Assembly: GCF_037042905.1 (NCBI RefSeq)
Contig: NC_087250.1
Location: 21,082,001 to 21,146,000, forward strand
Reading direction: 5' to 3'
DNA: 64,000 nucleotides
From: Lytechinus pictus
Lineage: Eukaryota
The notes beneath the pieces are model-generated. The model ran no database searches and was not told the DNA's origin. It worked only from the letters and a program-made list of their open reading frames with translations. Below, one piece after another: positions 1,611 to 57,477 of this stretch. The first letter of the stretch is position 1, and each line of letters starts with the position of its first letter. The position numbers and the translations under genes were made by a program.

Positions 1611-1790
1611 CTGGGCGTTGTGGCGTGCGCCTGTAATCCAAGCTATGTGGGGAAGTTACAAATTGATGCAGAGGTTCGAGGTACGAGCCCTGGTCACGTC
1701 TTTCGGATGGTGACGTAAAAGGTCGGTCCCAGACGTAAATAAACATATCTGATTGATACACGTCTGACAAAACTCAAATACACACACACA
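1611..1790 (+). mobile_element. SINE with 7SL-RNA (Alu-domain)-like head, B-box-like segment, Deu-domain-like segment and (CA)n tail
   Basis: Head ctgggcgttgtggcgtgcgcctgtaatccaagcta resembles the 7SL/Alu 5' end. Followed by gaggttcgaggtacgagccc (B-box-like), gtctttcggatggtgacgtaaaa and a (CA)n tail. Possible TSD cacaa at 1606-1610 and 1787-1791. Confidence 0.65.
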
Positions 1791-3155: not shown

Positions 3156-3289
3156 CAAATTATTCACTTCCTCTATCTCCCTCTTTCCCCCCTTTTCTCA
3201 ACATACATCCACGCACAAAATCCAACACGATGCAATAATTTTACTTCGGGATGATTTTTTTTTTTGATATATATATATATTTTTTTTTA

Positions 3290-3470
3290 AAACAAGTCCA
3301 CACCTAGTTACCAATAATGCATATAGCATTTCCATTTATTTGAAAGCATGATAAAATAGCATTTTAGATTAAATGCCTTGCTCACGGGCATAGGTGCCGC
3401 GGCCGGGGATTGAACCACGGACTTTCCATGTATAGCCAGGCGCCTTAGACCACTCGGCCACGGCACCTCC
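3290..3470 (-). mobile_element. Intact tRNA-derived SINE2
   Basis: Reverse complement reads ggaggtgccgtggccgagtggtctaaggcgcctggc...gtggttcaatccccggccgcggcacc (A and B boxes). Same body as 2217-2575. Confidence 0.75.
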
Positions 3471-4446
3471 ACTTTTAGTCCTGTTATTGATCATTACAAC
3501 GCGCCCTCTCGCGCTCAAGATTAATTACTAATGCGTTCAGTAATTTTTACACAATAGCAATACACGAATAAGATTATGAATGTGGTACATCCTACTTCAA
3601 CCATGAATACCTGAATGAAAAATTCTTTGATACAATTTTGTGAAATTGCTAGTGAAGGCTCTAACTTGTTTCAAACATCACAACACTGATTATTAAAATT
3701 GTATGAAATGGCCGTCATACGTACGGAATGGTTTATATTAGTTGTTTGACATTGTCACATTGTGTCATATTGCGATTTAAAGATTTATGCGCGCGAATAG
3801 TACTGTTATATTAAAAGAGCTAAACTCATTATTAATGTTTGTACATTTTCCATATGTCGTGGGTAGGACAGGAAAGAGCAGTCAAAACGCCAAAAGATTG
3901 AGTTGTAGTCGATCTTTTATTTTACAGCCAGATCAAAACGTCATGAAAACGAAACCAAAACGAACAAAAACCCTGCAAAGACATGATAAATACATAGTGC
4001 CACAAGGCAGTCATATTCTGTAATATAGATCTTAGTATTGCATCGATAATAATATATATATGTTTTGTAGTAAGCTTAAGTGTTTCAACAAATATGAAAT
4101 TTATAATTTCTCTAAATTCAATTTGTAAATGATATTGAAATATTCAGCTATAGCAATACAAGTTATTCATTACCACCCTCATCTGTATCATCAAATCTGA
4201 TAATGAATAGACTGTATATCTCGAGAACATCGTCACCCCGAATGTGACATGAAAATCCTCTGACTTGTTTCTCAATCGTTACTTCCTTGTTATCCTCTGA
4301 TAACACTCGTCATCTTACAAGGCAAGAGCAAAATAAATTTGGAAATAAAATCTAACTTGCAACCCTTACTCTTAACTCTTTAAACCTGAAATATCTCCTA
4401 AAAATAAAGTTAAATGAAATGCATTCTGGAGTTAGGCCTACACGTG

Positions 4447-4478
<32 letters not shown>

Positions 4479-4505
4479 TACAGGTATATATATATATATA
4501 CATAC
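4447..4505. repeat. (TA)n microsatellite
   Basis: Interrupted TA run. Confidence 0.9.
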
Positions 4506-4618
4506 TCGAAAGTGTTCAATCAAATCCTCTATTGAATTTGATCGTAATGAAACATGTTCTAAAACCGAATTGTTTTAGACCGCTGAGAATTTCCAAACTA
4601 CAAAAGCACTTTTTACAT

Positions 4619-12900: not shown

Positions 12901-15900
12901 CAATATACTATTCATCTTTTTAACAAAATGCCATTTTAAAGCATGTGATGTGCTGATAAATTATGGCTTTGTCGTTTAATTTGTAAAATGATGGGGGTGG
13001 CACTTAGAGCCATTTTCAAAGAAGTTAAAACAGAATACCGAGAGAGGGAGCTCGATATCCCCGAAGGTGACATTCTGATTGGCAGATCACTTTCATAAGA
13101 TTAACAAATTAATGATATAATAATAACAGTCCATATTTAATATAATAACTTTACCAAAATGGAACTATTTGTTCTGAGATGTACATTTCAATGTTGTGAT
13201 AAGACAAACATATTACCCCCTCTTCGTCCAACTCTTTTAAGTAAATCTTAAAGGAAAAATCCGACCTTTTTCCAAATACTATCATTGTCACGTGTTTGAT
13301 ATTGTTTTAGAAGAGTTTTTAATTTAAAGGGGAATCCAGCCTTGGCCATAAAATGTTGTGTTGGGAAGGAGAAAAATTAATTAAACAGAATGGTGAAATT
13401 TTGAAAGAAATCGGACAAGCAATAAGAAAGTTATAGCTGCTTTAAAATTGAGATCACTAAATAGTATGTAGATTTCAAATTGGCAACTGGGTAAGTAAAT
13501 TATGACAAGGGGCAAGGACAACTTTCCCATGGGCCATGTACTTTATTATCAGGGATTTGTGGTTTTCTCTTATTACCCATTCCCCTGGGGCAGTAATCTA
13601 AATATAACCCAGGTAGTACATTGTTTTATGTCCTCATGAAAGAAAAATACAATTTGAAATAAAACTTTTGGGAAAAATGACATTTTAGCCATAATATGCA
13701 TTGGAGTACATGGAAGAGTAGTCCTTGCCTTACATCACTATGACATCCCATATGCGGCCAATTTAAAGTCTCCATGGGTATAGTGATTACCAATATTTAC
13801 AACTTTTAAAAATTCCTAACTTTCTTGTTGTTTGTCCAATATTGTTCAAACTTTCACCTATCAACTTGTCTGATTTTTCTTTTTCTTATAAAAACTATTT
13901 TTTATATGGGTTGGATTCCCCTTTAAGCTTAATAAGTTTGAATCATTTTGATTAACACAAGTAAACATTAATATTTTATGAAAATGATGCAAATACAATA
14001 TTGAGAGAAATTGGGGAAAATACACCAACGTATCGAGTATTCAATATTTTGAATTTGGAAATAACAAATAGTATTAATCTGTTTTTTCAATTGTGGTATT
14101 AAATGTTTACACAAATTCTGTAATTGGTTTAATAGTTTAAGTAGCTGAAATGTTAGCCCTGGTGCAAATTAGTTACAGGGGGATTTCTTGTAATGTTAAC
14201 GTCTTTGATTGATGTATCTTAATGATAACAAATACTGTTTAAAGCAATAACATACTCTACGTATCCCATCGTCTTCACATGTCGGCAGCATTCAATGAGG
14301 TAAACCAAGTCATCCTCGTCTGTACACTTCACCCGACCCAGAATGAGATACTTCAGGTTCTTGGTATGTTCCTTGATGAGCAGACCCAGTCCTCTCATTG
14401 TCTTGCTTGATACAGGACTCTTCTCTGATCGGAGTGAGTACGTAGTGCGAAGGGTAATGATTTTGAGATTTTGTCCTCCAGTCCGACGAAGACCAGCCGT
14501 GATAAAGGCTATGTCTCCCTCTGCATCATCGATAGTGATTTTAATATATACCAAAGCAGGGAGTGATGAGATCAGACCTTCATAGCATTGTGACGTCACT
14601 CCATCAGTTGATAGCTCTGTGATGGATGGTAGCTCAGGAGGAGATGGAGGGAAATCGATAGATGAGTCTGAGATGGTGAGAGAATTTAGCATCGGGAATG
14701 ATTTAAGGCAGGCCCATAGTCCATCTGTCACAGCGGTTGCCATGATAGACTGCTCGAATTGTACACTCACAACCTATTGAGGAAATGAAAGAAAAACAAA
14801 TTAACAGCATAAGAAGGAGATACAATCGGTTTTATTTATTGATGGTAACTGCAACTATTTACCAATATGTAGTATTGTACCTTTTAGTAGTTTTTTTTCT
14901 CACAGGACCAAACTGAATAGTCAGTAAAACGGACCTACTATACCCAGCTTTTTATTTTTTTATTTTTAGCTCTGATTTGTTTATTGTTTGATCATAGTGG
15001 TTTGGTTCATCACCTGTAGCGGCCGCACAGAAACGCTGTTAGGGAAGGTGTTAGCGCGAACAATTTACAAACAAATCAGCCACTAACAACACCATGAGCA
15101 GACTGAACGCACAGAAAACGTGGGTTTGAGCCTTTTCTATGACATGCTAAAGTGATTTATGTGTGCATTTATACAATGTAAGGGCCCTAGGCTCAATGTA
15201 TTATTCCCATTAAGTCGGGGCTCGGATTTGCAACATTAATTCTTACTTTGTGATGACATTTTACTACGGTGTTAATTGGTCCATGTTTTAACATAAATCG
15301 TAGTCTTAATAAAAATAATGTATTAACGGCATCAATCGTTAAAGGGGGGGGGGGGGCTATATTGCTTTGCTCGTAGAGTGGAAGAATTACTTCCGTCTAT
15401 GGAGGTGTTTATAGGGAAGCAGGATGTGAAGTATAGAAAAACAAACAATTGAAAATGAGGCGAGCTGATCATGTTATTTGTAATTTCCCCCACTTATTCA
15501 TTTATACATGTGAGATTGTGTTCATTTAAACTGAATTTGTCCTTGCAGTGGAAAGTAAATATGACCACTGCTTCAGTAATCATCATGACCATTGACAAGT
15601 TTTACATAGGCCTACAGGTAGCAGTTGTTACAACCGATAATGTCGCAGATTGCGACATTATGCCAAGAGCGTCCGACGCATAATGTCGCAGTCAACGCAT
15701 AATGTCGTAGTTTTTCTAACGCATAACGTCACATGTCGCAACGCATAATGTCGCAGCAAATTTCTAACGCATAACGTCACATATCGCAACGCATAATGTC
15801 ACAGCGGTATTTTCTTTAGGACTCGAGTTACAGAGAAGATATAAAATATGCTTTCACTAAGTATTTTTAAACACGAGAAAGAGAATTAGGTGATTTGGAA

Positions 15901-18900
15901 ATCAGGATTACTCTTTGTATGGATATTTATCAGTTTATTGCCATTTCGTCTACTGCCTTTTTCCCCACTATCGCATGGTCTGATATCATTTCGTCTACCA
16001 TTAGTTAGTCAACTATCAACATAGTCCAATAATAATTTCGTCTAACTACCATCTCGTCTAATAGCAAGTTGGTCTAATAGCCGTTTTGTTTATTATCATT
16101 TAGTCTAATTGTATTTTATTCAATTGGTCCAATATCCACTTTTTCCAATATCATTACGTCTATTACCTTTTGGTCTAATAGCAAATTGGTCTAATAACCA
16201 CTTGTACTACTCTCATTTCGTCCATGTTCCATTTGAACTTAAGTTGGTTCACTATCACTTTGTCTAAACCCATTTCGGATAACAATCATTTGGTATCGTT
16301 GCCATGGGTCCAATCACCATCTCGTCCAATCATCATTTCGTCCAATAGGCATATTCATTTCATCTTATAACCATAATGGTCTACTGGCACTAGACCTCTA
16401 CGGTGACTCGATGTATCATTGCCGATTTGTTGCAGTACTACTCCTGATTTGATTGCTCGCGAGCGCAAAATAAACCCTTTACCATCCGCCGAACATGGCA
16501 AAGCAAGGGAGAGAGCGAAGCAGAGCGAAGCAGAGCGCCGCGAGACAGGGCCTCTTGACATCTGACCCGAATTTCACCGACTTTCGCGGGTAGGGCGAAA
16601 AATAAAAACTCATCGGATCTGCTTTATCTTCTGAATATTGATGCCTTTGGATGTTAGAAGATCCCACAGAGCGAAGACGGCTGAATTGGGGGGGGGGGGG
16701 GGGGGGGGTCTCGGGGGCAATTTTGAAGAAATCAATTTGGTCATATTTTGGAAAATTTGGACCAGTCGCGGGTAGGGCGAAAAATAAAAACTTGTTTTTA
16801 CCAATTCACCGACCAAAATCTGGTCGGTGAAAATCATCCAATGAGAGCGCGAGCTGCTATGACGTCTATTAAATATTCATGAGCTCATCTTGAATGGCGA
16901 CACTTGGATTCATGGCGAGGAGTGACGACGAAATATCAAAGAGCGCTGAATATGACTCTAAAATGCTGAATATTGACCGATTTAAGGATTTGCAAGTCGA
17001 TGAAATTAACTCTGCACTGAAAGGACAAGATGTCTTTGTAAATCTACCCACAGGATATGGAAAAAATGTAATATTTCATGCGATTCCACCGGTCGAACCG
17101 GGGCGTCGATTATCGATCTCCGCTGTGCAGTGCAGTGAGGGAAGCTGGGGTGGACTTGCTGGGAGTTGACTCGAGTCTTACCAGCGGCTGAGCAGTATCT
17201 CCCGGGAAGTTTCGGGACGGTGATGGGTCTGTTACGGCCAGTAGTAGTAGTAGTAGTACCACTACTTGTAGCATTTTGCTGGTTATATCCCCTTTAGTGT
17301 CCCGCAATTAAATGAATCCCCTGCAGAATAATGGACTACTATACTATATAGTATTCCCAACCCAAAATGAAACAGCTTTGACATTTAATTGGTTTACTCG
17401 GTGACCGGTAATATCATGACTCATGTATATTCATTAGTAAGATGTTCCTCATGAATATATAATTCAGTTCAGATGTCAAGAGGCCCTGGCTCGCGCCAGG
17501 CCTAATTCGCTTCGCGAATTAGGGAATCCCTCGCTTCGCTCGGGAAGCAGCCGCCAGGGCCTCGACAAGAGGCTACCCTTGGTACGGCATAATAGTCATT
17601 ATGCCTACCAGGTCCCTTGGAGAGGACCTTAAGCCGTCGGTCCTCTGGTTGCTTGCTTACAAGCATTCATGCTTTCTTAGCAACCAGGTAAAAAGTCACC
17701 ATGTGATATATATAGCCTAAAATTTTCGCTCGAGCCTCGCATCCACATCCACTTCAGAATTTTCATGCATAGTGCTTGAAAAAGTGTCTAAATTTACCCC
17801 TTTTTGGACTGGAATATGAAGTATTTGTTGCTCGTGCTTCGCTCTCGCTTTATATTTTTATGCTTTTTCAGTTCTGATTTGCTTTGCAAAGTGTACATCA
17901 ATAATTATTACTATTATTGTTTTTACTATTACGAAGTTATGTTTATGCATGTGTGTAAAATAAGGTAATGAAACTAAGTTTTGGGGCTGGCCTCACATAC
18001 AAGCATCGCTTATTTTCGGCAGCCCCTCCGTTTTACTCTAAAATGCAAAAAAAAAAATTAAGGCAGCTAAATGTTATTGATTGGAATACTCCCCATGGAG
18101 TGGAGGATGTGCACACATTGTGTGCGGGAATGGCTGATTGAATCCGATGACCGGGGTAATAATATATCTGTAAAGCGCTTAGACACGTCGTTCAGATGTA
18201 TTAAGCGCTATAAAAAGCGGATTATTATTGTTATTGTGTTTATCAAATCTATAGGCCTTATTATGTTTTATAAGATGTTATGTTGTGTAATATTCTTTAT
18301 TTTTATGATATGTTCATTATATACAACATTGTGAAACGGAAAACAGTGAATGAAATGATTAAAACATGTATTCAAAATGCCTAAATTATACATGTAGGTC
18401 TAAATCTAAAAGAAAAACGCACACGAATAAAGTCTGAAGTTTTAAGTACATCTAATGTTTTTTTTTCTTACAAACAAGATAAGATATCTAATAAGGCAGG
18501 CGCGTATCCAGGATTTTGCATCTCGTGGAACAGACCTATACGCAGCTTGTTCTATATATTTATAACGTGCTTGAATTATCCAGTTTCAGATCAGAATATA
18601 AAAAAACTTCTGCTCGCATTAATAACATTAATGTAGGAAGATACCTATTTACCCATCCATTTTACGATTTACAAAACTTTAAAAGATTGTCCTGTTCTTA
18701 GATATAAAATCTATTTTTTCGGCTCGCGCTGCCGTCAATTGTTTAGTTATGTAACTCGAGTCCTGACGAAAATACCGGTGATTGGACCTTTTGGTGATTG
18801 GAACCATGGCAACGATACCAAATGATTGTTAGCCAAAATGGGTTTAGACAAAGTGATAGTGAACCAACTGAAGTTAGACCAAACGGAACATGGACGAAAT

Positions 18901-21900
18901 GAGAGTAGACCAAGTGGTTATTAGACCAATTGGCTATTAGGCCAAAAGGTAATAGACGTAATGATATTGGATAAAGTGGATATTGGACCAATTGAAAAAA
19001 ATACAATTAGACTAAATGATAATAAACAAAACGGCTATTAGACCAACTGGCTATTAGACGAGATGGTAATTAGACGAAATTATTATTGGACTATGTTGAT
19101 AGTTGACTAACTAATGGTAGACGAAATGATATCAGACCATGCGATAGTGGGGAAAAGGCAGTAGACGAAATGACAATAAACTGATAAATATCCATACAAA
19201 GAGTAATCCTGATTTCCAAATCACCTAATTCTCTTTCTTGTGTCTCAAAATACTTAGTGAAAGAATATTTTATATCTTATCTGTAACTCGAGTCCTGAAG
19301 AAAATACCGCTGTGACATTATGCGTTGCGACATGTGACGTTATGCTTTAGAAAAACTACGACATTATGCGTTGACTGCGACATTATGCGTTGGTGCGACA
19401 TTATCGGTTGTAACAGCAGTGTTGTATTGAAACATAAATTTACCAGTTCACGTTAAAATAATCAGGAAAGGGGGGATGAGGTATGGGACTTTTTTCTATT
19501 TATGATTTTTGATTGGTTTTGCAATCACAAACATAATCTCAACAACTACTGTACATATCATTGGTATACTTAATGGGGGAAAACAAGGTATTAAAAAGGT
19601 AATAACAACAGTAATAATAACAATCATGAAACAAATGAAAAAGAGACTTGGCTTCGTAATTCCATTCTAGGATATTCATTGTGGCATGGATAGTCATCAA
19701 TGTTTTCTAAAATACTGTACAGTGTTCACTTCATTCAGTTCATCTTTCTTCATTATTTTCCATTGAAGAATTATGTTATTGATTGAAATTACTGTCTTCT
19801 CATCCTTCTCATCTAATTTCATTCTGTTTTTTTTTCTCATATGGACTGGGGGCTTGAGCAATGGCGGATCCAAAGTAATGATCAAATTTTTTAGTGTAAA
19901 CATGCCGGCCATTTTTGTCTCGCCTGCATAGCAGAGCGAGACTATAGGCGCCGCTTTTCCGACTGCGACGGCGGCGGCGGCGGCGGCGTCAACATCAAAT
20001 CTTAACCTAAGGTTAAGTTTTTGAAATGACATCATAACTTAGAAAGTATATGGACCTAGTTCATAAAACTTGAACATAAGGTTAATCAAGTAATACTAAA
20101 CATCCTGCTTGAATTTCAGGTCACATGATTAAGGTCAAAGGTCATTTAGAGTCAATGAACTTAGACCATGTTGGGAGAATTATTTTCAAAATCTTAACCG
20201 AAGGTTAAGTTTTTGAAATGACATCATAACTTAGAAAGTATATGAACCTAGTTCATGAAACTTTAGCATAAGGTAAATCAAGTATTAGTGAACATCCTGC
20301 TCGAGTTTCAGGTCACATGACCAAGGTCAAAGGTCATTTAGGGTCAATGAACTTTGGTCAAGTTGGGGGTATTTGTTGAATTACTATCATAACTTTGAAA
20401 ATTTATAGATCTAGTTCATGAAACTTGGACATAAAGTTAATCAAGTATTAGTGAACATCCTTCCTGAGTTTCAGGTCACATGGCCAAGGTCAAAGGTCAC
20501 TTAGGGTCAATGAACTTTGGCCAAGTTGGGGGTATTTGTTGAATTACCTTCATAACTTTGAAAATTTATGGATCTAGTTCATGAAACTTGGACATTAGGT
20601 TAATCAAGTACCACTGAATATCCTGTGCGAGTTTCAGGTCACATGACCATGATCAGTGGTCATTTAAGGTCAATAAACTTTGGCCGTGTTGGGGGTCTTT
20701 GTTAAATTACCATCCTAACTCTGAAGGTTTATGGATCTAGTTCATAAAACTTGGACATAAGAGTAATCGAGTATCACTGAACATCTTGTACGAGTTTCAG
20801 GTCACATGACCATGGTCAAAGATCATTTAAGGTCAATGAACTTTGGCCGTGTTGGGGGTATTTGTTGAATTACCATTCTAACTCTGAATTTTATGGATCT
20901 ATTTCATAAAACTTGGGATTTAAGAGTAATCAAGTATCACTGAACATCCCCTGTGAGTTTCAGGTCACAAAACCAAGGTCAAAGGTCAGTTAAGATCAAT
21001 AAACTTAGGCCATGTTGGGGTAATTGTTGAATTGCCATCATAACTTTGAAAGTTTTTGGATAGAGTGAATGAAATGTGGACATGGGTGTATTTGACAAGT
21101 CTTAAGTCACCGTTCAAATGTCATCTATGGTCAATGAACGTGGTATTATGTCATTATATGAATGGTGTGTTTGTGAATTATTATTTTATAGTAGTTTTCA
21201 AAGTTAGCACTGCTGCTATATTGAATTGCGTAATGCAGGCGAGACTGACAGAGGCGTTCCACTTGTTACAGAAGTGTGCCCCTCCCCCTTGAAAGCGATT
21301 AAGGACTTTTTTGCTAGCAAATTTTTGTTGGGACAATAATACCTTAAATGTTAGATGTAACCCCCCTTCTTTATTGCTTGCCAAGCTTTTTCTCGGGAAA
21401 ATGAGCCCCCTTTTGGAAGAAACTGAATCCGCCCCTGGGCTGAAATGTCCTTTTAACTCGTTCTAGGTCTATTCTTAAGCACTTGATATAAAAAAGGAGA
21501 CAAGTTTTACGCACGAAACGCAAGAGATATTCATTAAAGGGATAGTCTAGGCTATATATCGAAAATTTGATTAAAATTGGATAACAAATAACGAAGCTAT
21601 TGAATTTTAAAGATTTTCATTATCTGGTGTAACAATAGGCATGTCTTTATGAATATTCATTACGTGGGCTGATGATGTCATATCCCCACTTTTTCTTTTG
21701 TATATATTTCATTATATGAAATAAGGTTTATTAAATCATTTTCTACCAAGAGCTAAAACAATTGGATTGACAACTGATTAAATGCATTACTTATTTATTG
21801 CTGCAACTTATTTCATCATAATGGAGACACATCATTTACACATGTATGAAATAATGAAATATTCATGATTTCATGTAATAACATAAAAAAAGAAAGTTGG

Positions 21901-24900
21901 GATGTCACATCATCAGCCCACCTAATGAATATTCATGAAGATGTGCATACAACTGTTTTCACAAAATATTGATAAATTTAAAAATTCAATAACTTCGTCA
22001 CTTGTTATCCGATTCTGATGAAATTTTCAGCATTTTGCTCTGTGAATTTTACTCTATTTTTTTTAATATAAATATTTTTAGCCCGGACCATCCCTTTAAC
22101 ATAAGCACTGTCGCTGCCCTTGACACTGTTAGTGGATAGTTCAAACATTAGCGCTAATGTCAGCTTCTGTGCGATCTTGTAATATTAGTCTAACAGCGCT
22201 AGCTAGTGATTTGGCTAACATCCTGCTCCTGTGCGGGCAATACCTCGCTAACAGTGCTATGAGTGACAAGTGCTCTGTTAGCGCTAACTGGGCCTTTCGC
22301 AAACCTCACGGACGCTAATATTAGGGTCCTCAAACACAAAAGTTGACTCTTAATCATACACTTGATTTTTAAGATTGATTGTACATTATAGTCAATAGAA
22401 TCAAACGTAGAAAACTGCTCTACAATCATTGCTAAGCTTTGTGTTACAAGGGGGGGGGGGGAGGTTACAGGCCCTACAGATCTGCTTTTCGTGTGCAAAA
22501 TTCTTTCCCGCGACACCCGCACCATACATGCATGTACATTACGACTGATAGTCATCATCGTATAGATTATGACATATGGATAAGAAAGTGGTTTTTCGAA
22601 CAAATCGAGTACATATTGAGTGAGGAATGAAGTTACTGAATTAACCAATGAAGTCACTGAATTAAGGCTTAGATATAGATCATTACAGTCCATCGAATCG
22701 ATATTGCATTAAATGTGGATTATTGATGGATCACTGGCAATTGATTCCATGGGTCAGATCACCTCTCAAGCCGAAACCATTTCGCATGCGTTGATATGTG
22801 CACGGCATAGGCAATAGGCCTAAACATATATACGTCTGAATACAAGCCAAATTTGCGGGGTTTTTTCTTTTGCTTACTCCTACGCAAACGATATGCCTCT
22901 AGCACACAATGTAATGGGCATTACGTTTTACTTTCCCCAGAAATGGGGGATTAGATTCAATTTCCCGGGGGACCACTTCCATTGATAAGTTGATACCAGG
23001 CGCGACCATGGGGTTTCGAAAATCACCCTAAACAAGGGAAGCAAGTCTTTTCCAGATTATGAAAATGCATCTCTTAACAAGTATTTAGCTTGTAAAACCC
23101 TACAAGTCTTGGAAATATATCCCTCTTTTCAGTATTTTAAACATCTTTTTTGGCACCCTTATAACGTTACATAGGCCTATACGTAATGTACTTGCCCACT
23201 CTTTCTCTATTTACGCGTGGTTGCGCCTGGTATCCACTCTTCAATGGAAGTGGCCCCCCGGGCGGCCTCTCGATCTCTGGGCGGAATCAAATGTGGCTCT
23301 GATAAGTCGAACCTAAATCGGATATATCGCTGTTACCATAGTAGCAACCAGGATTTTGCACACGGAACGCAGATTGAATGTTTCCGTTCCAGATGCAAAA
23401 CTAAAAAAATCTCATGTCACACAATTTGCATTGCAGGACAGAGTTTTACGACCATGACGACGGGCCCCAAAGTCTCTTCCAAAATCAACTACCGTTGTAA
23501 ATAGGCGTTTGCGCTCTCGAACGAAAGGTCGGGAACAACGTTTCTGCGCGGCCGATACTTATTCATCAATGGATTATATTCTACTGCTGTTATCTTAAAC
23601 GATTATCGATTAATATCATGTGATTTGGTATAACAAAAGAAAGCAAATATTTATGAAATACAACATGATGGATTATATGAATTTATTTCTCTAGCAATTA
23701 TCTAGCATTAGAATACCTTTTGTTTCAGTTCTCTTGGAAGATTTCGCATCCCAACTACAGTATACACTGTTGGCGATTGCAAAAGCATACTTTGTGACGT
23801 CACACACCTTCGAACCAAGGATGACACCTTCCCATCGCTAACCCCAGACTCTGATGAACAGTCTAAGAGAATACGATAACGCTCACTCTCGGATAAATAA
23901 CTATTTGTCAGAAGCGTCTCCATTATTCGAATACAGAGTCTGTTCTTTGTTCCAGCAGCAAAACGAATGAGATTTTCATAATCGCCAACATTTCTTTTAA
24001 TATTTTGTAACACTTGGTCTAACTTAGAAATCTTCCAATTCAGCTTGAAACGACTTGTTTTATGAGCTAGGAACTTCCCGGCTGCATGTTCTTGGGCAAG
24101 TTTGTGATAAAATTCTATAGTAGTAGAAGAGGTTTCGTTAGTTTGAGGAAGGTGTTCGCTTGATACAGTTGTCTTGGATACTATCCCTAACTGACATGCC
24201 TTATCGAGGACAGATGGAATCTTCTGAAAATCACGAGGGGTAAATACCAACTTCTTAGAATAAGCAAGTAGACCAGTGAGAGCAACTTTACCCAGTTTGT
24301 GGATTATTTCGTCCAGGGTTTCAGGTGTGAATAACCTATCGGTCCGTTTATTTGCGTGGTGGCTTAAAAACACGTTTACTTTGTCGAGCAATGATGTTTG
24401 AGTCGAAGTCTCACTGTCAAGACGATCTACAGACCATAAGTGACATACCATGAGGCAGAATAGTGGTGTTTTTACTAGTTCCTCTATCAGTGGATTTGTC
24501 TCGAGGTAAAACTTCAGACCATCTGCTTTCATTGGTTTCTGAATCCGGGAAGAAAAGAACCTGTCAATGTAATCACATGAGCTCTCTTTGGAGAATCCTT
24601 CGATCTCCATCTTCGTGTATACCCTTGGTAGATCCCCTTGACTGAAAATGTTTTCTAAGTGAGGTCGTGATGTTACAAGAACTCGACATTGTTGAAACAT
24701 TTCCCATAGGAGAATTTTCATGATATTGCTTGAGGAGGAGATACCAGCATACTCATCGAGCCCATCTAGTACAATATGACAGATTCCCTGATGCTGCCTG
24801 ATGAAACTTTCTAGCCCCTCTGGCGTCAGATCGTCAACATCACTCAGGAGTTGTGATATGATGGCTTCTCCGATCGATGTACTATGGCTTGTGTTTCGAA

Positions 24901-26085
24901 ACTTGACAACAAACAGCAGTGGCAAGTCCTCTAATCCTGAGCCATCTTCTCTGTGAACCCAATCGTGCGCCATCTTAGCAACAGCTGTCGTCTTTCCTCG
25001 TCCAGCGGGAGCCGAAATAAGGATTCGAGATGGCAATGTTCCGTTTACTTTGGCTGAAAATATTTTTCCTGCAGAGCCTTGTAGTATTTCCTTTTCCTTA
25101 ATATCTCTCCCACGATCGTCCTTCTTTACCATGGTAACAACGGTGTGCATATCTTTAAACTCTGCATAATCATTATTGTTCCAAGGTGTCAATTGAATTT
25201 TACAAAGCTGGTTCGAGTATTTGTCCTCTAAGATTGTGCGACATTTTCGAACAGTCAGTGATTCCGATATCTTCTTACTGTAGGTATCTGGAACGATATA
25301 ACAAAAGCATTGAGTAGAATGAGTTCAACCACGTGATATCTGCCCTTTGAAATAGGACAAAGAGATGATTCGGAATAAGAAATACTTATGCGGGTCTTTT
25401 TTCCATTATTCAATATGATAGTACAAAAACAAGAATACATACCAAAGAAACAATCCCTTGAGGAAGGAAAAAATGAAAAATACTATGTAACGAAACTTGT
25501 TGCAAAATATTTACACTCAGAGGCAGATTAAAAGTGGAAAATAAGGCTGTCATAGTTATATCTAAAGCTTATTTTTTAGTATGAAGATTTTGTTTTATAC
25601 GCCCTAAAGTCTTCTTTATCTGATAAAAATGGAAAAGGTAAACTTTAAATATTCATTTTAAATTGATAGTTTGATGCTTCCTGGAGATAATTTTTTTTAT
25701 GGATAGATAAAAAAAAAAAAACATATTCATTTTTAATTCGTTGATGATTAATATATTATTTGGCCTGAATTGTATTTTCACCTTGGGTAGCTATCGTCTC
25801 TCTGAGATAAGTTTCAGCAAGCCTGATTAGATTAGCATCAATAAGTGCTTGCTTCAGCCTAGGATGCTGATTGGATGGCTCCACTCTCTGTCTCCAGTCA
25901 AACAGCATGTCACGTGTTCCCTTACACGTGACCCGTCCTTCCAGTCTGTTGGTCTCTGCGTATCTATTGATGGCTGCAGTGTTGAATCCTAGTGTTCGTC
26001 CCAAGGCCCCCATCTGTTCACTCGTCTCGATGTCTTCAGTTAGCTTACATAGAAGCTCATCTGGAATATCTCCTTGTGTTGCCAT
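6909..26085 (-). CDS. NLR-family innate immune receptor (DEATH-NACHT-LRR), spliced, 5 coding exons, about 845 aa
   Basis: join(complement 26085-25782, 25287-23717, 14773-14256, 12324-12228, 6956-6909) = 2538 nt. All four introns are GT-AG, with consistent phases 1, 0, 2, 0 and no internal stops. The DEATH+NACHT+LRR architecture is typical of sea urchin NLRs. Confidence 0.85.
8862..9558. mobile_element. Kolobok-like non-autonomous DNA transposon
   Basis: TTAA on both sides (8858-61, 9559-62). Imperfect TIR aggtcctatgaca / aggtgccatgaaa. Confidence 0.55.
12228..12324 (-). CDS. NLR coding exon 4 (97 nt)
   Basis: atatag|G CTA TAC... encodes (E)LYCRTMSNGKVASHVQHLHTKSPNDLHVLVYH, open in the phase required by exon 3. 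Ends at a consensus donor CAT|gtaagt. Confidence 0.7.
12384..12424. mobile_element. 41-bp perfect hairpin with CAAGG termini and 7-bp TSD (P-element-like footprint)
   Basis: caaggagatatcactcta-actcg-tagagtgatatctccttg, flanked by atcaaag at 12377-83 and 12425-31. Confidence 0.75.
13328..13922. mobile_element. Kolobok-like MITE
   Basis: TTAA TSD (13324-27, 13923-26). TIR aggggaatccagcc / ggttggattcccct. Confidence 0.75.
14256..14773 (-). CDS. NLR coding exon 3: leucine-rich repeats
   Basis: Acceptor tcctcaatag|GTT (phase 0). LRR-like units FPMLNSLTI, LPSITELS, LPALVYIKI, GQNLKIITL, TKNLKYLIL. Donor GA|gtatgt (phase 2). Confidence 0.85.
16539..17575 (+). mobile_element. Academ(H)-like non-autonomous element with RecQ-like helicase fragment
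   Basis: 27-bp inverted repeat at 16539-16565 and 17469-17495; 3' end ...gaggcta. ORF 16894-17169 contains KDLQVDEINSALKGQDVFVNLPTGYGK (SF2/RecQ Q-motif and motif I), then loses homology. Confidence 0.55.
16894..17090 (+). pseudogene. Truncated RecQ/SF2 helicase N-terminal fragment
   Basis: GQDVFVNLPTGYGKN matches the RecQ pattern G.DVF..LPTG.GKS; the downstream helicase motifs are absent. Confidence 0.65.
18083..18240 (+). mobile_element. SINE/L2-type 3' fragment
   Basis: ctgtaaagcgcttagacacg...tattaagcgctataaaaagcggattattattgttatt tail. Confidence 0.5.
19912..21267 (+). mobile_element. Helentron-associated non-autonomous element (HINE/DINE-like) with internal 163-bp tandem array
   Basis: Starts tttttgtctcgcctgcat; subterminal IR atgcaggcgagac near the 3' end; ends cttgtt. 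(GGC)n follows the 5' hairpin. ggtcac anchors at 20311, 20474, 20637, 20800 and 20963 give a period of 163. Confidence 0.75.
21538..22095. mobile_element. Kolobok-like palindromic MITE
   Basis: TTAA TSD (21534-37, 22096-99). TIR agggatagtctaggct / agcccggaccatccct, with extended internal inverted similarity. Confidence 0.75.
22964..23262. mobile_element. MITE with CCCGG...CCGGG termini (about 45-bp TIR)
   Basis: cccgggggaccacttccattgataagttgataccaggcgcgacca versus tggttgcgcctggtatccactcttcaatggaagtggccccccggg. Confidence 0.7.
23717..25287 (-). CDS. NLR coding exon 2: NACHT NTPase, winged-helix and HD2 region
   Basis: Acceptor ttccag|AT (phase 1) gives DTYSKKISESLTVRKCRTILEDKYSNQLCKIQLTPW, in frame with ORF 23708-25192. 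Motifs: Walker A ISAPAGRGKTT, Walker B HIVLDGLDEY, sensor-1 VLVTSRPH, GFS, TPLFCLMVC, WHD FYHKLAQEHAAG. Donor AAG|gtattc. Confidence 0.95.
25782..26085 (-). CDS. NLR coding exon 1: DEATH-fold domain
   Basis: MATQGDIPDELLCKLTEDI...LGRTLGFNTAAINRY...TRDMLFDWRQRV...LKQALIDANLIRLAE has the DEATH-domain helical pattern (LG..LG, ML..W, L..AL). Donor CAAG|gtgaaa, phase 1. AG acceptors lie just upstream of the ATG (26088-89 or 26095-96). Confidence 0.85.
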
Positions 26086-26620
26086 CGCTGCAGTCTAATA
26101 GACATAACAAAGAAGAATTATAATCTAATTGGAAAATTGAAATAAAAAAGAGTATTTGTTGTATCCGTTCATTATTGTACATCTTTAAATTAAACTGAAC
26201 TGAAGTCTATTAGTTCAATAATGTGCATCGTCTTCAAAATTCTTGGCGAGACTGTGTTGTTTCTGGGTTGTGTATGTCTCCATCGTGGGATTAGAAACCA
26301 ATTCAATTCAATACGATCATTACACAACCAAAAGGCTGTAATTAGCATGCTTACAATACAATTTTCACAAGTCATACATGGGTAAAAAGAACAAACAGTT
26401 ATACTGTAAAACTACAGTACTACATTACATAACGAAAATCAAGTCTTTAGATAACGACATTGTAAAACCTATAATTCAGTACAATTTCGGTGAACACAGG
26501 TCGATGAGTATTAGATAAAAAGCTGATTATCTCATATGTATTCTCTGATGCATTGTGTGCTGATCAAAAAGCGGCAGCTTGAGTTAAAATTTGAGTAATA
26601 ATAAGTAGGATGAGCCCAGG

Positions 26621-27880
26621 TATTTTTCTTTTTTTTTTCATTTCATTTATTTTCCACAAATCAATCAAAATACAAAAACATATAACTCATTCCAAAATAG
26701 TATGCATAATTACAATATAAATGCAGATTCAAAGTGGATGGACCTAAAGTAAAGCAAAAGCTTGTTGTGGATAGGCCCTTAACAAATAATTAATGTGTAA
26801 TCATTGATAGCTAAAAATAGTTACAGAAAAATAGAGCTGAGCTCGGAGAAAGTTACAGAAATGGACAAGGACGAAAACAGAGAACGTTACAAAGAACAGG
26901 GACACACAGGTTACTAGACAAGACAAGGAAGACAAAGCAAAACATAAAAGAAAGAAAGAAGGAAAGAAGACCCGTCTATCGTCAACCATATGGTAAGATT
27001 CATTCGCGAGCTTCATTCTCTGATTTCTCATAACTTCCACCTTTTCGCGATACGATAGGGTCTTGAAGAGGATGTGACGCGGTCGATCTTCTAGACGCTT
27101 CCCATCACGATGAGCTCTTTCTACTTTGACAGCGAGACCAAACTTTTCCTTCAATATTTTCTCAGTGATGTTGACGCAGTTTTCTTCTCCCGATGTCGAT
27201 TCTGGAATACCGATGATCCTGATGTTATTCCTTCGGGAAAATCGTTCACTTTTGTTGATCTCAACACGTTGATTGGCAACTTCGGATCGTAGTTTAGGCA
27301 CTTCCGATTCCATTTTTTTCATTATTTTCTCCAGGCTTGTATATTTCCCCTCCATTTCCGTTACTCTTCGACTCTCGTGTTCAATGGCAGAAGCCAGGTG
27401 CGTCTCAACTAGTTTTACGTTCTCCTTGAGTGAAGCGACGGTATCTCGTATCATCTTTTCGAACTTCTCCGTAGCTGCTTTGAAGTACCGATCTATTTCT
27501 CCACGGGTTACGTCATCGTTGTCATGCAAATTCAAGGAATCTGGAGAGCTGGAAATATCTTCTTGGTTCCTGGTGGTCTTCGGACGGGCCCCAGGGCCAC
27601 GGAGAGATCCGGCGTCTAGGGGTTTCGGCTCCCGTGGAGGCGTCTGAAGGTCCGAGATATCAGAAAGGTCCTCATCTTTGCCAGACTTGGATTCATCTTT
27701 CTCGGTCTTCCTTGACTTTTTCGTCGTCGTCTTCTTGCCATGTCTGGTCATGATGAATGTAGGATCCAATAAATCAACAAAAATAATCCAATATAATCCA
27801 AGAAATGTGAAAATATGAAGTTAGTTGAGAGAAATTACGGAGAGACTAGATGTCACGTCTTATTCGCAGGCGGCCATTTT
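26621..27880 (-). mobile_element. Non-LTR retrotransposon remnant with L1-type (Transposase_22/RRM) ORF1, truncated
   Basis: ORF 26801-27769 has a coiled coil followed by ERFSRRNNIRIIGIPE...VERAHR...RPRHILFK. Homology stops at MVDD (about 26978). A LINE-like 3' tail with aataaa and an A-rich end lies at about 26621-26790. Confidence 0.75.
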
Positions 27881-28514
27881 ACGATTATTGTTGTTTTATT
27901 ATTAATTTCGTTATTACTATTAGCAGTGTTATTGTAATTATTATTTTTTTTTACACTCTAGTGAGTTTTGGTTACTCCTATTGCTTATCATTATTACCAT
28001 TATTATTTCAAATATTTATTATCATTTACTAATATTAAAAACATCATATCTGCATTTTTTTTTTACTTTATGATACGAAATCATGATTATTCTCTCAGTT
28101 TCATTTGAATTTGCTTAGCTGAGTTGAATATTTATCCTCAAAGACTATGCGATACTTTCTAACGGTCAGAGACTCAGAAATATCCTCACTCTAGATATTT
28201 TGAATAATAAAAACGGACCAAAATTAGTTCAACCACGTGCTATCCGACAGTTGAAGAAATTAAATAAATCAACATAAAATAATGTGTGTTGTCACCCACG
28301 TCCGCATATGTGGATGTCATGTGACCTATCTAGCCAATCAGAGACATGTACCCTGCGAGATACCGTGCATACGGCACTTCGACAGAGTATATAAGGCCTG
28401 CTTTTACAAACTTTGCTTTTACAAACTGATCTGAGCTATATTATCTGTGGATATATATGAATTTGGAATATACGAATCTTAGTTCAGCAAAAGCGAAAGT
28501 CGTCTGAGAAGCTT

Positions 28515-30127
28515 ATGAACCAACTCTTTCGATTCGGACAGCGGATTGGTAAGCCTGTCAGCGAAATTCAAAAGCACATTTACAGTAAACTAACCAGCAT
28601 ACTAACAAAACCCAATGTTAACGGTACTTCTAATAATATTCAAACTATCCAAACAGAGGTAATGGAAACGGAAGAGACAGATATTTCTTCTGGAGAAGAA
28701 GCGTATTACCAAGCCGCAATTGGTAAGGTAATGAATACCCCGAGCAGTAATAGAAAACAAGGTATATTCCAATCTCATCTCAATAAAACAAATGATAGAG
28801 AGAGTTCTACAGAAGTTGAGAGTGAAATGGAGTGGCGAAAAGTGGAGAGAAAAAAGAGAAAGGCAAGTACAAGAACTATAAATGAAGATGACAGAAGAGT
28901 TAGGAAAGGAAGTTTCGAAAACAAAGAAGGGTCGTGTTCAAATCGTAAAAAAGGTAAGGAACAGAATATCAGAAATGAGAAAAAATCTATGATAGTAGAA
29001 ATAAGAGATGTTGGTGAGAAATCATGCATAAGCAAAATAAGCCCAGCAAGACTCATTAAAGAAATTACCTCGAAGTATGGAGAGGTGAGTAAAATTACGA
29101 AAGAAAAGGGAAGCCTAAAAGTTACTTGTATTGATGAAACACAGATGAAAAAGATTTTAGAAATGACTGGACTAATTCACACCCCTGTAAAGGTTGCACA
29201 ATATCTGCCCATAACTCAAATCCGCGGTGTTATTCATAAAGTAGGAAGAACTAAATGAGCTCCTGAAAGAACAAGGTGTGACGTATGTAAAGAGATTCAA
29301 TAAAAGAATAAACGGTGAATTATCACCAACCCCTTCTGTTCTACTAATATTCAAAGGGCCAAATCTTCCACACCATGTCTCCTTTCTATACCAAAAATAT
29401 GTAGTTGATGAGTTTGTCCCTACTGTAACAAGATGCCACAAATGCCAGCAATTTGGGCACATCCAAAAGAATTGCAAGGGTCATTTAAGATGTGTAAGAT
29501 GTGGTGAGGCCCACACTTTTGAAATGTGCCCCAATAAAGATCACCCAAAATGCTTGAGATGTAACCTTAATCATTCAGCGGCCTATCAAGGATGTACCTA
29601 TTATAAGGAAGCAAAAAATATTCAACATGTCAGCTTGCAAAATAATTTAACTTATGCTCAAGCAACAAAAATATACCATCAAGAAAAAAAGAGAAGAAAA
29701 TCATTCAAAAGATCGTGATTCATCAAACAAGAATATAATCAAACCCCCCAAAAGAAAGAAAATCCCTGATCAACCGAATATTTCGGAAGCTGACGTAGAA
29801 CAAATACCAATTACGGTAAAGAGGTCGACCATAAAAACGGCGACCATGTCCACACAAACAGAAACGGCGGAAAAGTCTGTTCAGACAGATGCGCAAGAAT
29901 TTACTTCTAATCATAGGCCTAATGAAGCAGAAGAATCTGGGCCTGTAATTCCCGCATCCACAGAAAATGCTAGAGTCGACTTTTTGGCATTCATCACTTT
30001 TATTGTAAATAACCTTGACAAAGAAACTTCACATTCAAACATAATTAGATTAGTGGTTGATGCAGCCAAGCGATGCTTAGACATCAACGAGGTGTCTCCA
30101 GAGATGATCCACGATCGTCTTCAGTAA
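28515..30127 (+). pseudogene. LINE ORF1 gag-like protein (frameshifted near 29250 and 29690)
   Basis: Pieces 28515-29258, 29278-29718 and 29654-30127. Zinc knuckles RCHKCQQFGHIQKNC, RCVRCGEAHTFEMC, KCLRCNLNHSAAYQGC. Confidence 0.85.
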
Positions 30128-30161
30128 TAAAGACAGCTCAAAGACTATCAACGCTCGGACT

Positions 30162-33100
30162 TTCAATATTTTACAATGGAATGCCCAAAGCATGAATGCT
30201 CACGGTCCAGGCTTTTACAAAGAGCTAATAGAAAGTGTAGAATTAAACTCACTCCCTGCCTTGATATGTTTACGAGAAACATGGTTCACTGATTTCAATA
30301 TATTAGCAATTCCAGATTTCATCCCAGTAATAAAAAATAGAGGCCAATGAGGAAGAGGAGGAATTGCAATATATGTGCATAAAACAGTTACTTTCAAAGA
30401 AGTTAATTTCCCTCAAATAAAGGTATATCAAAGAATTTACATTTTCACTTATGACAAGGTCATTTCATTAATCAATTATTATAATCCCTGTCAAAAGATA
30501 GAATTGCGCGAATTAGAAGATTTGATTGAAAATTGTTCAAAAAACATAATAATTACAGGTGATTTCAATTCACACAACCCTCTGTGGGGTAGCATAAAGC
30601 GAGATAGTAATGGGACATTAGTTGAAAACTTTATAACAAAACATGATTTAGTAGTATTGAATGATGGTACACCTACAAGAATGGACATCCATACAGGGAC
30701 AAGGTCTTGCCTAGACTTAACAATTGCTTCGAAGGAAATTGCCAGCAAACTAAAATGGAACGTGCTAGGAAATTTCGGGAGTGATCACAATGTCATCAAG
30801 TGCTCACTGCACGAAATAGAATATGTAGATCATAATATCAATCCTCATAAAAAGAATTGGTCCTTCAAGCATGTAAACTGGGAAATATATCGGGAAAAAA
30901 TGAAACATAAATTTAGTAAAATAAAGATATTACAATTTTCACACAATCTGAATATTCAAGATAAATACAATTTGATTTTGCAGATAATTAACGAAGTGGC
31001 AGAAGAAACCCTTCGCAAAGCAGGCCGAAATCGAAAAGCCAAAAACCCAGTTCCTTGGTGGACACTAGAATACCAAGAAGCAATTAAAGAAAGAAATAAA
31101 TATAGAAATCGATTAAATAGACATTTTAGAAAGGAGGACTTGGAAATGTATAGGAAAAAGAAAGCATATGCCCAAAAAATAAAGAGACGAACACAAAAGG
31201 AATACTGGTTAAATTACTGTCAGTCTTTGAGGAGAACATCCAACTTAGGAAAAGTATGGGAAATGGTAAAAGGACTACAAAATGGTTCTGTCTCAAAACA
31301 TATATTTCCCAATTTATTAACAGAAAACAATACACCAGTAGCTAATGCTCAAGAAAAGGCAGAATTGGTTGCTAAGGCTTTTAAAATGATAGACAATCGA
31401 TTAGACAATGAGGAGATTATTAGAAGAAATTCATTTGAAAATTTAATACAAAATACGATCAAAGAAAGCTGCTCCTCTGAATCACCTCTTGATGATGAAT
31501 TTACATATGATGAATTAACAAGCGCTGTTAAAGAAATGAAAAATTCTGCAGCAGGAACAGATGGTATCAAATCAATTATGATACAACACCTACCGAAAAT
31601 AGCTTTTCAGTTCATATTAGTTTTAGTAAACAATATTTGGAATTCCTCAATTCTACCCTCAGATTGGCATTATTCTACCCAGATCCCTGTACTTAAACCA
31701 GGTAAAGACCCAACAAACCCTTCTTCATATCGACCTATTTCCTTGACATCAACTTTCTCCAAACTGATGGAAAGAATGGTTAAAAATAGACTTGTATAGT
31801 TCATGGAGCGATGCAGTATCCTGACACCAACACAGGCAGGATTTAGAAAAAATAGAAGTTCTTTAGATCAGCTCCTTAGATTAGAAACGGACATACAGAA
31901 AGGATTGGCTAACAAGGAGTATGTCCTAGTTATTTTCATTGACCTTGAAAAGGCATACGACCTTTTATGGAGAAAGGGAATAGTATTTAAATGTCATCAA
32001 GCTGGTATAAAAGGAAAAATGTTACAGTGGATTAATTCATTTTTACAAGATCGATATTGCAAGGTAAAAATTAATGGCCAGTTATCTTCACAATTTGTTC
32101 TGGAAAATGGAACGCCCCAAGGTAGTGTTATTAGTCCAATTTTGTTCAATTTAATGTTGAATGATCTAAAACTGATAGAAAAATCTGTAAAAATCTCTAT
32201 GTATGCCGATGATATTGCCGTATGGTGCTCAGGCAGAAATCTTGACTTTTTACAAAAGAAAATGCAGAAAGCTATAAAAGAAATTGAACAGTGGTGCTCA
32301 ACCTGGAGTATGATTATTTCTCCTCAAAAGTCTGCTGTTATGATTTTTACGAATATGCAGCATATAGAGGTAAATATTAAGGTTAAAGATAACTCTATAC
32401 CACAATACAAAGAATATAAGTTTCTGGGTATTTGGTTTGATGTGAAACTCACCTGGAAAAAGCACATCGATTATATAAAACTCAAATGTTCAAAAAGAAT
32501 CAATTTGTTACGGTGTATAGCAGGAACAAGTTGGGGAAATAATAAAACGATTCTTTATATAATATACAAAGGTCTTATTAGATCCATATTAGACTACGGA
32601 TGTGAGTTATACGACTCGGCTAGCCTTTCGCTAAAACAAGAATTAGATTCAATCCAATATCAGTCACTGAAAATAATAACTGGTGCAGTATATAACCCTG
32701 CCCTTGAAGCACTTCAGGTAGAATGTGGTGAAAGACCTTTACAACTAAGAAGAGAACTGTCTGTTGACAAATACATGTTTGATCTTTTAACAAACAGAGA
32801 TAGTCATCATCCTACTTTAGAAATGATTGAACCTTCCTGGTATATTGATCAATTTACTTGGAAATCAGGTCGTGGACCCTTTGTAGTCAGAGCATGTAAG
32901 CCAAATGAAGAGATCCAAATTAAACAACTAAGCCAAAGAATATTACGAGAACCTCTTAGGTCATATGAAATACCTAATATATCTTACTATATCCATAAGA
33001 TTATCAATAAACAACGTAACTTAGTACAAGATATGAAAAACTGTGTCTCAGAAAGGATACATACAAGATGGAAAGGTTATTTAAATATCTACACTGATGG

Positions 33101-33996
33101 ATCAAAACAAGAAGACAAGAGAACCGGCTCTGCTTTTTATATACCAGAACTGGATATTAAAAGATTCTATAGATTAAATTCTGTAAGTATAATGAGAGCC
33201 GAATTAACAGCAATGGTAATGGCACTTGATTGGCTAGGAGATAACAGAGGTATGTCCGTGGTAATTTTTACAGATTCGTTGTCTGCTCTTCAAGCACTTG
33301 AAAGCAATCGTATACAAAACAATCTTATTGTTGATATCTTGTATAAAATCAAAGTTTTACAATCATCATATATTTATGTCAATTTTGAATGGATACCATC
33401 CCATTGTGGTATTCACGGGAACGATGTGGCAGACCTTTTAGCAAAAAAAAGGAGCATCAAACGAACAAGTTGAATTAAACATTCCATATATCAAAGAGGA
33501 ATGGAAAACCCACATGTCTTTGATTTATAAAGAAATATGGCAGGCTCAATGGGTATCCTCATCTAAAGGAAGACATTTATTTAGCATCCAACCCAACGTG
33601 GCAGATACAATTAGTTATCAAGGTCTCATTCGGTTTGAAGAGACTATGATACACCGTTTAAGACTCGGAAAATGTAAATTAAATTATTATCTGTATAAAT
33701 TTAATCAACATGAAAATGGTCTATGTTCCCATTGTCAGGTTCCTGAGACAATAAAACATTTTTTACTACAATGTAAGAAATATGAAAGAGAAAGAAGAAT
33801 TATGCAAAGAAGCCTGAAATTAAACAAGCCAATATCAGATCTAGCAACATTATTGGGAAGAAATGCAGATTATAAAGTCATCCTGAATTACGTGAAAAAA
33901 CAAATATATTCGAATAAGAATATTCCACTGATCTCTTTCCATCTCTTTCTCTCTCTCTCTCTTCCTTTTGTTCTGATGATTAGTGATAATTCTTAG
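30162..33996 (+). pseudogene. LINE ORF2: AP endonuclease, reverse transcriptase, RNase H, zinc finger (disrupted)
   Basis: APE: ILQWNAQS, CLRETW, GDFNSH, GSDH. RT: YRPISLTS, DLEKAYD, GTPQGSVISP, YADD. RNase H: IYTDGSK, AEL, TDSLS, WIPSHCGIHGNDVAD. Zinc finger: CSHCQVPETIKHFLLQC. Stops at 30348 and 31797; frameshift in the A-run near 33445. Confidence 0.92.
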
Positions 33997-43375: not shown

Positions 43376-43803
43376 ATAATAATAATAATACTAATGGATA
43401 TTTAGAGGCGCTAAAAACAAAAAAGTACCATAGCGCGTACAATGTATGAATAATTTAACATGAATAATAATTAAATAACTACAATATTCATGATAAAAAG
43501 GGAAATTAATTATTGAGGAAAAAGGTATGTCTTAAGGGAAGATTTGAAGCCAAGAACACTGGAAGCATTTCTTATAGAAAGAGGGATAGCATTCCAAGTC
43601 TTGGCAGCTGCTACAGCAAAACGTTTTTCGGCAGAGGAGAGTTTTGACAAGGGAATGCAAAGTCTGCATGTGTCAGTGATTGAACGAAGATTACGAGAGG
43701 GTGTGTATAATTTGATGGTATTATTAAGATATTCAGGTGCCAATTGATTTAGAGTTTTGTATACATATAAACATACTTTAAACTGAATACATCCGTAACG
43801 CAC
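43376..43803 (-). mobile_element. L2-clade LINE 3' fragment
   Basis: IQFKVCLYVYKTLNQLAPEYL...RNLRS...RFAVAAAKTWNAIPLSIR...FKSSLKTYLF, with an (ATT)n tail. Confidence 0.85.

Positions 43804-57417: not shown

Positions 57418-57477
<60 letters not shown>

Follow-up and report, generated by a model that had tools for sequence, protein, structure and literature searches.

A candidate chimeric SINE with a 7SL RNA-like 5' domain, a tRNA-like remnant, a Deu fragment and a LINE-type tail in the sea urchin Lytechinus pictus

The window, a 64,000-nt stretch of Lytechinus pictus DNA (64 kb; NC_087250.1, 21,082,001–21,146,000), contains a candidate SINE of 180 bp at 1610–1790 on the plus strand, located inside AT-rich DNA. 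From 5' to 3' the element consists of a 7SL head, a tRNA-like remnant, a Deu fragment, a LINE-type tail and a (CA)n repeat. The features of the element, its insertion site and the matching LINE end, all on the plus strand, are as follows.

1606–1610, plus: possible 5-bp target duplication, left copy, weak (right copy at 1787–1791)
1610–1656, plus: 7SL (SRP RNA) 5' Alu-domain head, 47 nt (Rfam Metazoa_SRP model)
1657–1692, plus: what is left of the parent SINE's tRNA-like head (L090 alignment, B box alignment, consensus scan)
1693–1729, plus: 5' part of the Deu/Nin central domain, ~37 nt (Deu row of AmnSINE1_HS)
1730–1779, plus: LINE-derived 3' tail, two-stem hairpin and A-rich spacer (covariance model, pairing)
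1780–1790, plus: (CA)n terminal repeat (sequence; end point shared with relatives)
2017–2064, plus: empty paralogous site, where the flanks recur locally with no element between them (gapless flank alignment)
34178–34240, plus: 3' end of an APE-RT-RNase H (presumed I-group) LINE, same two-stem hairpin, (CAAC)n end

Comparison with the Rfam Metazoa_SRP model revealed that the head (1610–1656) aligns to positions 1–44 of 299 with 29.6 bits, at E-values of 3.6e-6, 7.7e-5 and 8.2e-4 in searches of 301 bases, 6 kb and the whole 64 kb (4227 families), respectively. An earlier note on this DNA had recognised a 7SL-like head, and this part stands; however, it placed the start at 1611 and the length at about 35 nt, whereas the Rfam alignment begins at 1610 and covers 47 nt. 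The score lies under the gathering score of the model (70) because the fragment has just 47 nt, and the assignment was made against this cross-species model; the host's own 7SL would presumably be the donor. In the Rfam scan of the 64 kb, the head was the sole SRP match, and the other five of the six matches at E ≤0.1 fell in an AT microsatellite (4434–4517). The head is identical to the consensus throughout model positions 21–30, which we take to include the U-turn contacted by SRP9/14. Twelve of the 14 model pairs are standard pairs in the head and the remaining two are non-standard; the closing helix is Watson-Crick in all three of its pairs, two of which are changed on both sides relative to the consensus (compensatory). 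The folding energy of the head was ordinary (z 0.11), and the minimum-energy fold contains both hairpins and omits the closing helix. Judging from these alignments, the 5' end of the element is derived from 7SL RNA.

It is highly improbable that the head is instead a diverged sequence of tRNA type, or an unrelated GC-rich one, with a chance likeness to the Alu domain. Its score is far under the gathering value, and the mir-1268 miRNA model comes close, at 28.6; however, we take mir-1268 to be Alu-derived, the match remains significant over 64 kb and 4227 families, and it starts at model position 1, which is the first base of the element. ARAGORN called no tRNA, and in shuffle tests the head did not resemble the tRNA-like heads of the four relatives described below (p 0.40–0.94). 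We see next to no chance that the head is a human or other mammalian Alu that reached this DNA through contamination, an assembly error or horizontal transfer: strong conservation of the 7SL 5' end does make the head look like the vertebrate-like consensus of the model, but only 47 nt are present, joined seamlessly to the body of a marine-invertebrate SINE, the flanks have a local paralogue, and the two compensatory pairs of the closing helix set the head apart from the consensus.

Extension of the SRP alignment to the 3' end of the model (1610–1667) gave 29.5 bits and thus no gain over the 5'-only alignment, which indicates that the 3' Alu segment and the S domain are absent and that the element is neither a 7SL pseudogene nor the product of an Alu-type internal deletion. 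Full-length 7SL similarity followed by poly(A), as in a processed pseudogene, was ruled out since the match stops at 1656; full-length similarity was also the outcome that the earlier note had set against its own proposal, and what we found is a match that ends after 47 nt. A reading of 1664–1693 as continued 7SL sequence was dropped, because it brought no gain in model score and the stretch aligns with the B-box region of the relatives. Retention of both a 5' and a 3' part of 7SL around a central deletion, as in Alu, B1, Urop and the hagfish element, is absent here.

A putative Pol III A box lies within the 7SL head at 1614–1623 (element nt 5–14) and is identical, by eye, at 8 of 10 positions to the human and at 8 of 10 to the hagfish 7SL A box printed in PMC7245038; the degenerate A-box scan pattern was fitted to the element, so that its zero mismatches carry no meaning. 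The B box at 1680–1690 (element nt 71–81) has one mismatch to the 11-letter consensus and aligns with the B boxes of the relatives L070, L090, L092 and L048, and an overlapping B-box-like word with two mismatches begins 7 nt upstream (1673–1683). The B-box-like string of the earlier note is thus real, but it comprises two overlapping words, only the downstream one being the counterpart of the relatives' B box. In this copy, the B box is altered at a normally invariant base. The gap between the two boxes is 56 nt, near the 60 nt of human 7SL, whose A and B boxes lie at 6–15 and 76–86, respectively, in the excerpted text of PMC7245038. No TTTT run occurs within the element, and the first one downstream is at 1922. 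The junction between the head and the following segment is sharp, as the alignment with the head of L090 begins exactly at 1657, one base after the SRP match ends. Segment 1657–1692 showed 21 identities with L090 over query positions 1–30, a modest similarity (p ~0.02, 1000 shuffles), and no significant similarity to the heads of L070, L092 and L048 in the shuffle test.

A search with a 17-letter motif from the body returned 100 metagenome loci, four of which match the element far beyond the motif; the other 96 matched by chance, over ≤33 nt, and were left out. The identity to the element was 88% over 111 nt in L070, 86% over 94 nt in L090, 84% over 90 nt in L048 and 79% over 116 nt in L092, with L090 the closest relative at several diagnostic bases. 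The SINE spans in these contigs are as follows.

L070: 290–441
L090: 160–372
L092: 215–400, minus strand
L048: 270–436

All four have the body and tail in common and the same end point in (CA)n or (CAAC)n, and their flanks are unrelated. Upstream of the body, L070, L090 and L092 carry tRNA-type A and B boxes and L048 only a B-box remnant, and no Rfam match was obtained in any of the four at E up to 1. The contigs are marine and may come from hosts other than Lytechinus. They represent a group of tRNA-headed, short-Deu, I-group-tailed SINEs with at least three head variants among the four loci, and from 1657 onward the element is, by sequence comparison, a member of this group. Since body and tail are shared with tRNA-headed copies, the 7SL piece appears to have taken the place of a tRNA-like front end; most simply read, the 5' domain of 7SL now stands where such a head had its front part. 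The SRP match and the tRNA-headed relatives together support the earlier proposal of a chimeric 7SL/partial tRNA/partial Deu SINE in an echinoderm.

The recurrence of body and tail in four unrelated flanks with a common 3' end, together with an empty paralogous site, places the element at 180 bp within the SINEBase definition of a SINE as given in the excerpted PMC3531059 (<1 kb and interspersed; a head, a body and a tail of simple repeats). The SINEBase head criterion is ≥60% identity over ≥60 nt to tRNA, 5S or 7SL; here no single RNA spans 60 nt, the longest single-RNA match being the 47 nt of 7SL, and the composite head measures 83 nt including 36 nt that are tRNA-like by homology.

Comparison of the central segment with the Deu row of AmnSINE1_HS in the PMC7245038 supplement, counted by eye, revealed identity at 24 of 28 columns for 1693–1720 and at 29 of 37 for 1693–1729; the likeness to the Deu core claimed earlier is thus real but short. 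The segment is conserved in the four relatives, with the limitation that 17 of its bases served as the search pattern and are circular in this comparison. According to passages of PMC4824008, the Deu domain extends over 330 bp in vertebrates, ~120 bp in Nin and 70 bp in the shortest remnant, and the ~37 nt found here amount to about half of the latter. Motif searches of literature supplements recovered Deu/Nin rows and no sequence with the tail of this element.

The (CA)n tail was present as described in the earlier note, with about five units at 1780–1790. Upstream of it, the outer stem of the tail hairpin is formed by 1730–1736 and 1761–1767, and hairpin folding gave z-scores of −1.75 for the element, in which one inner pair is broken, −3.4 for L070 and −3.5 for the 3' end of the LINE. 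In a six-row alignment of the SINE tails and the LINE, 72 of 77 cells were paired, compared with 23–40% in slid controls; three compensatory pairs were found in the outer stem, all in the LINE row, a number reached in 3 of 500 shuffles. A covariance model was built from the five SINE tails only and searched against both strands of the 64 kb. Its top non-self match among 21 was the LINE end at 34178–34235 (17.4 bits, E 0.0049, the next at E 1), where the E-value is rough owing to a short calibration and the likeness to the LINE had been spotted by eye before the model was built. Plain local alignment of the tail to the window was no better than that of shuffled queries.

The LINE (~28420–34240, plus strand) is nearly full-length and encodes endonuclease, RT and RNase H. 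Its ORF1, with three zinc knuckles, is split over two frames, and ORF2, which carries a C-terminal knuckle after RNase H, is broken by one stop and a shift to another frame; 28411–28417 and 34240–34246 may be the two copies of a 7-bp target duplication. Its relatives of 1,000–1,300 residues carry the identical domain set. We take this APE-RT-RNase H set to define the I group. The LINE may belong to the Nimb clade, the I-like clade reported from sea urchins in excerpts of PMC4758252. The earlier note had called for a partner LINE with the same 3' tail; the homologous hairpin is indeed present in the window, but the match is distant, and from its sequence this LINE would be a relative of the likely partner, not the exact partner. 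A poly(A) tail and an L1 partner, traits of Alu, B1 and Urop, are absent from the element, which ends in (CA)n and has a tail homologous to an APE-RT-RNase H LINE. The trait of LINE-partnered SINEs, a 3' tail homologous to the LINE 3' end with a conserved stem-loop, is present.

As a side observation, the presumed 5' end of the LINE (28412–28434) resembles 1656–1672 and L090 218–241 (20 of 24 columns with L090), which would fit a bipartite LINE contribution to the SINE if consensus sequences bore it out. This likeness is unproven, as 27 and 2 of 1000 shuffles scored as high in the region chosen post hoc and the window-wide score was 29 vs 27–33. Other frames in the window bear on LINEs: a 339-aa frame at 26801–27820 (minus strand) lacks a Pfam match and by motif presumably represents an L1-type ORF1, and short frames at 37741–38121 (plus), 43510–43833 (minus) and 42447–42761 (plus), with no match to Pfam or to the SINE-tail model, look to us like ends of other LINE ORF2 proteins.

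Analysis of the flanks revealed that 1576–1605 and 1787–1804 together align without gaps to 2017–2064 (37 of 48 identical), with further colinear blocks of duplicated flank (20 of 23 and 25 of 32 identical); the right flank scored 80 vs 50 ± 5 for shuffled sequences, and none of 500 shuffles scored as high. An empty paralogous unit thus lies ~400 bp downstream in a locally duplicated region, and the element is probably an insertion into this duplicated unit. The 5-bp TSD suggested earlier exists as a direct repeat (1606–1610 and 1787–1791), but it is weak as a target duplication, because its last base is at the same time the first base of the 7SL match, and its other letters are those of the tail's own CA unit. 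In the empty-site alignment, junctions from 1783 to 1789 score alike (112–115), and since the repeat letters are also tail-like, a target duplication is not established. Several pieces of a second SINE-like family are found in the duplicated units beside the element: this tRNA-headed family has clear A and B boxes at 3254–3467 (minus strand), with further pieces at 925–1036, 1884–1913, 2217–2397 and 2441–2591. The 3254–3467 copy was unrelated to the body of the element, as 70 of 300 shuffles scored as high.

We next consider copy number. Self-comparison and the tail covariance model detected no second copy of 1611–1790 in the 64-kb window, and exact-pattern scans gave 0 matches for head plus body in metagenome contigs and 0 for the head in viral contigs; the viral-contig scans gave 0 in 3 of 3 and the scans of bacterial and archaeal genomes 0 in 2 of 2. 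In a sequencing-run index, 19 runs (organisms A and B) contained 30–48% of 23 words sampled from 1560–1850, no run reached half of the words and one seawater run contained 13%; these shares do not distinguish copies of a repeat from alleles, nor the head from the body, and were not used as evidence. The single copy in 64 kb, the absence of head-plus-body matches from metagenome contigs that yielded four tRNA-headed relatives, and the damage to the B box and one tail pair would suit a one-off or few-copy chimera, formed when the LINE RT, copying a tRNA/Deu SINE, jumped once to a 7SL fragment, with no 7SL-headed family behind it. U6/L1 chimeras are analogous products of RT jumps. We consider this origin unlikely, since the junction coincides precisely with the closing helix's end, the promoter is complete with A and B boxes at Alu-like spacing, and a random 64-kb window would be far likelier to contain a member of a family than a unique chimera.

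Known 7SL SINEs, which the literature treats as exceptions, provide the context for a 7SL-headed family. The hagfish element has been called the first SINE1 outside Euarchontoglires (PMC7245038); 7SL SINEs were listed in 2024 for primates, rodents and hagfishes (PMC10886601), and the shrew mole was added to the hosts in 2026 (PMC13023118). In the excerpts of these three papers, all known 7SL SINEs keep both 7SL ends, and PMC13023118 makes the case that 7SL SINEs arise through one specific central deletion. The titles and abstracts searched mention no invertebrate 7SL SINE; Repbase, Dfam, Repbase Reports, subscription journals and SINEBase might hold the family under another label.

The closest parallel in construction is SINE1-1_EBu of the hagfish Eptatretus burgeri, which likewise has a 7SL head grafted on an older tRNA-headed SINE, a LINE-derived tail for mobilisation by a non-L1 LINE, and a microsatellite end with no poly(A), as described in excerpts of PMC7245038. 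In contrast to the urchin element, with its 47-nt 5' domain only, tRNA-derived B box, Deu fragment, I-group tail and 180 bp, SINE1-1_EBu keeps 5' (96 nt) and 3' 7SL parts with the B box of 7SL itself, and has a bipartite RTE tail, ~17-bp target duplications and a length of 282 bp. Alu, FLAM and B1 of Euarchontoglires and Urop of the shrew mole share the 5'-terminal 7SL Alu domain, the A box and a similar A-to-B spacing, but they derive entirely from 7SL, retain the 3' Alu segment, and have poly(A) and L1 as partner (PMC7245038 and PMC13023118, in excerpt). The interspersed 7SL-derived copies P7SL_MD and P7SL_Cpo comprise full-length 7SL and poly(A), whereas the urchin element joins 47 nt of 7SL to foreign modules (PMC7245038). 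The 5S-headed DeuSINEs (AmnSINE1, SINE3-1 and kin) also combine a Pol III small RNA and a partial tRNA in the head, followed by Deu, but differ in the 5S rRNA donor, a Deu domain of up to 330 bp and CR1/L2 tails (PMC4824008 and PMC4758252, in excerpt). SINE2-3_SP is, like the present element, a sea-urchin SINE with a Deu domain, but it is listed with a tRNA head and a CR1 partner (PMC3747384, PMC4824008).

On this evidence, we consider it fairly likely that the element is a copy of a sea-urchin family of 7SL-headed chimeric SINEs, of which one copy was examined, with a hybrid promoter and mobilisation by an I-group LINE. Such a family would have been born when the 47-nt 7SL 5' Alu domain was joined to an older tRNA/Deu SINE in place of the first half of its tRNA-like head, most likely via a template switch during reverse transcription, for which the 5S-headed DeuSINEs give a precedent, as their 5S plus partial-tRNA heads in vertebrates have been explained in this way (passages of PMC4824008). 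The RNA would be transcribed by Pol III from a hybrid internal promoter, with the A box supplied by 7SL and the B box by the tRNA remnant. Its 3' hairpin and CA-type repeat may be recognised by the RT of an RNase H-bearing I-group LINE, probably Nimb, which would then insert the element at new sites by target-primed reverse transcription, as the tail homology suggests. The head may fold as an SRP9/14-binding domain and, as in Alu, carry the RNA to the ribosomes that are synthesising the LINE protein.

Excerpts of PMC11760393 describe the 46-nt 5' Alu domain as necessary and sufficient for SRP9/14 association and as supporting retrotransposition, with a B box required from elsewhere. The 47-nt urchin head equals this minimal domain in extent, and by analogy with Alu the chances that it acts in SRP9/14-mediated ribosome targeting are about even. 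A true 7SL-headed family could also have kept its head merely as part of the promoter (the A box) or by drift, SRP9/14 playing no role because a stringent LINE finds its template through the 3' hairpin. The LINE-type recognition hairpin without poly(A), unlike Alu, speaks for this reading, as do the tRNA-headed relatives, which spread with the same tail and without any 7SL part; however, the entire 5' domain corresponding to the minimal SRP9/14 unit is kept, although an A box needs just the first 15 nt, and the excerpts of PMC7245038 report that hagfish SINE1 retains the Alu-domain fold though moved by a non-L1 LINE. We regard the promoter-only reading as rather doubtful.

Within SINE1, the element lacks two defining traits of the known lineages (the 3' Alu segment, and poly(A) with L1), and its 5' end probably works like theirs. 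A more tentative proposal, which we offer as possible though somewhat short of likely, is that the family represents a fourth independent origin of 7SL SINEs. It would be the first invertebrate case and, alone among the four, would have taken just the 47-nt domain; selection would have favoured the SRP9/14 module since delivery to ribosomes increases retrotransposition, even where the partner is a stringent, hairpin-recognising I-group LINE and poly(A) is lacking. In that case, evolution would have arrived at the minimal unit delimited by deletion mapping of Alu, and capture of SRP9/14 would be a portable, partner-independent booster of SINE mobility. A sea-urchin family that has the 5' domain only, takes its B box from a tRNA and relies on an I-group LINE would reveal a further route to 7SL SINEs, and the relatives that combine this body and tail with a tRNA head provide a natural control for the 7SL head. 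The ribosome/SRP9/14 model is a long-standing account of Alu success, and it would become testable outside L1 and mammals, in a laboratory-model genus.

The window contains several further features. Large imperfect tandem and inverted repeat arrays with units of ~160–330 bp occupy 44046–48779, 49057–52471, 53206–63849 and 19997–21083, and a repeated unit with a tRNA A-box-like stretch occurs in tandem at 55223–55773 and inverted at 60175–60499. An inverted pair of 640-bp repeats (15693–16332 and 18779–19410), 92% identical and 2.4 kb apart, may represent a non-autonomous DNA transposon. An NLR immune gene lies on the minus strand at 14222–26094, with a death domain at 25759–26094, a NACHT exon at 23711–25324 and a probable leucine-rich exon without a Pfam match at 14222–14773; the protein of the NACHT exon is 93% identical to L. 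pictus, 84% to L. variegatus and ~70% to Strongylocentrotus proteins.
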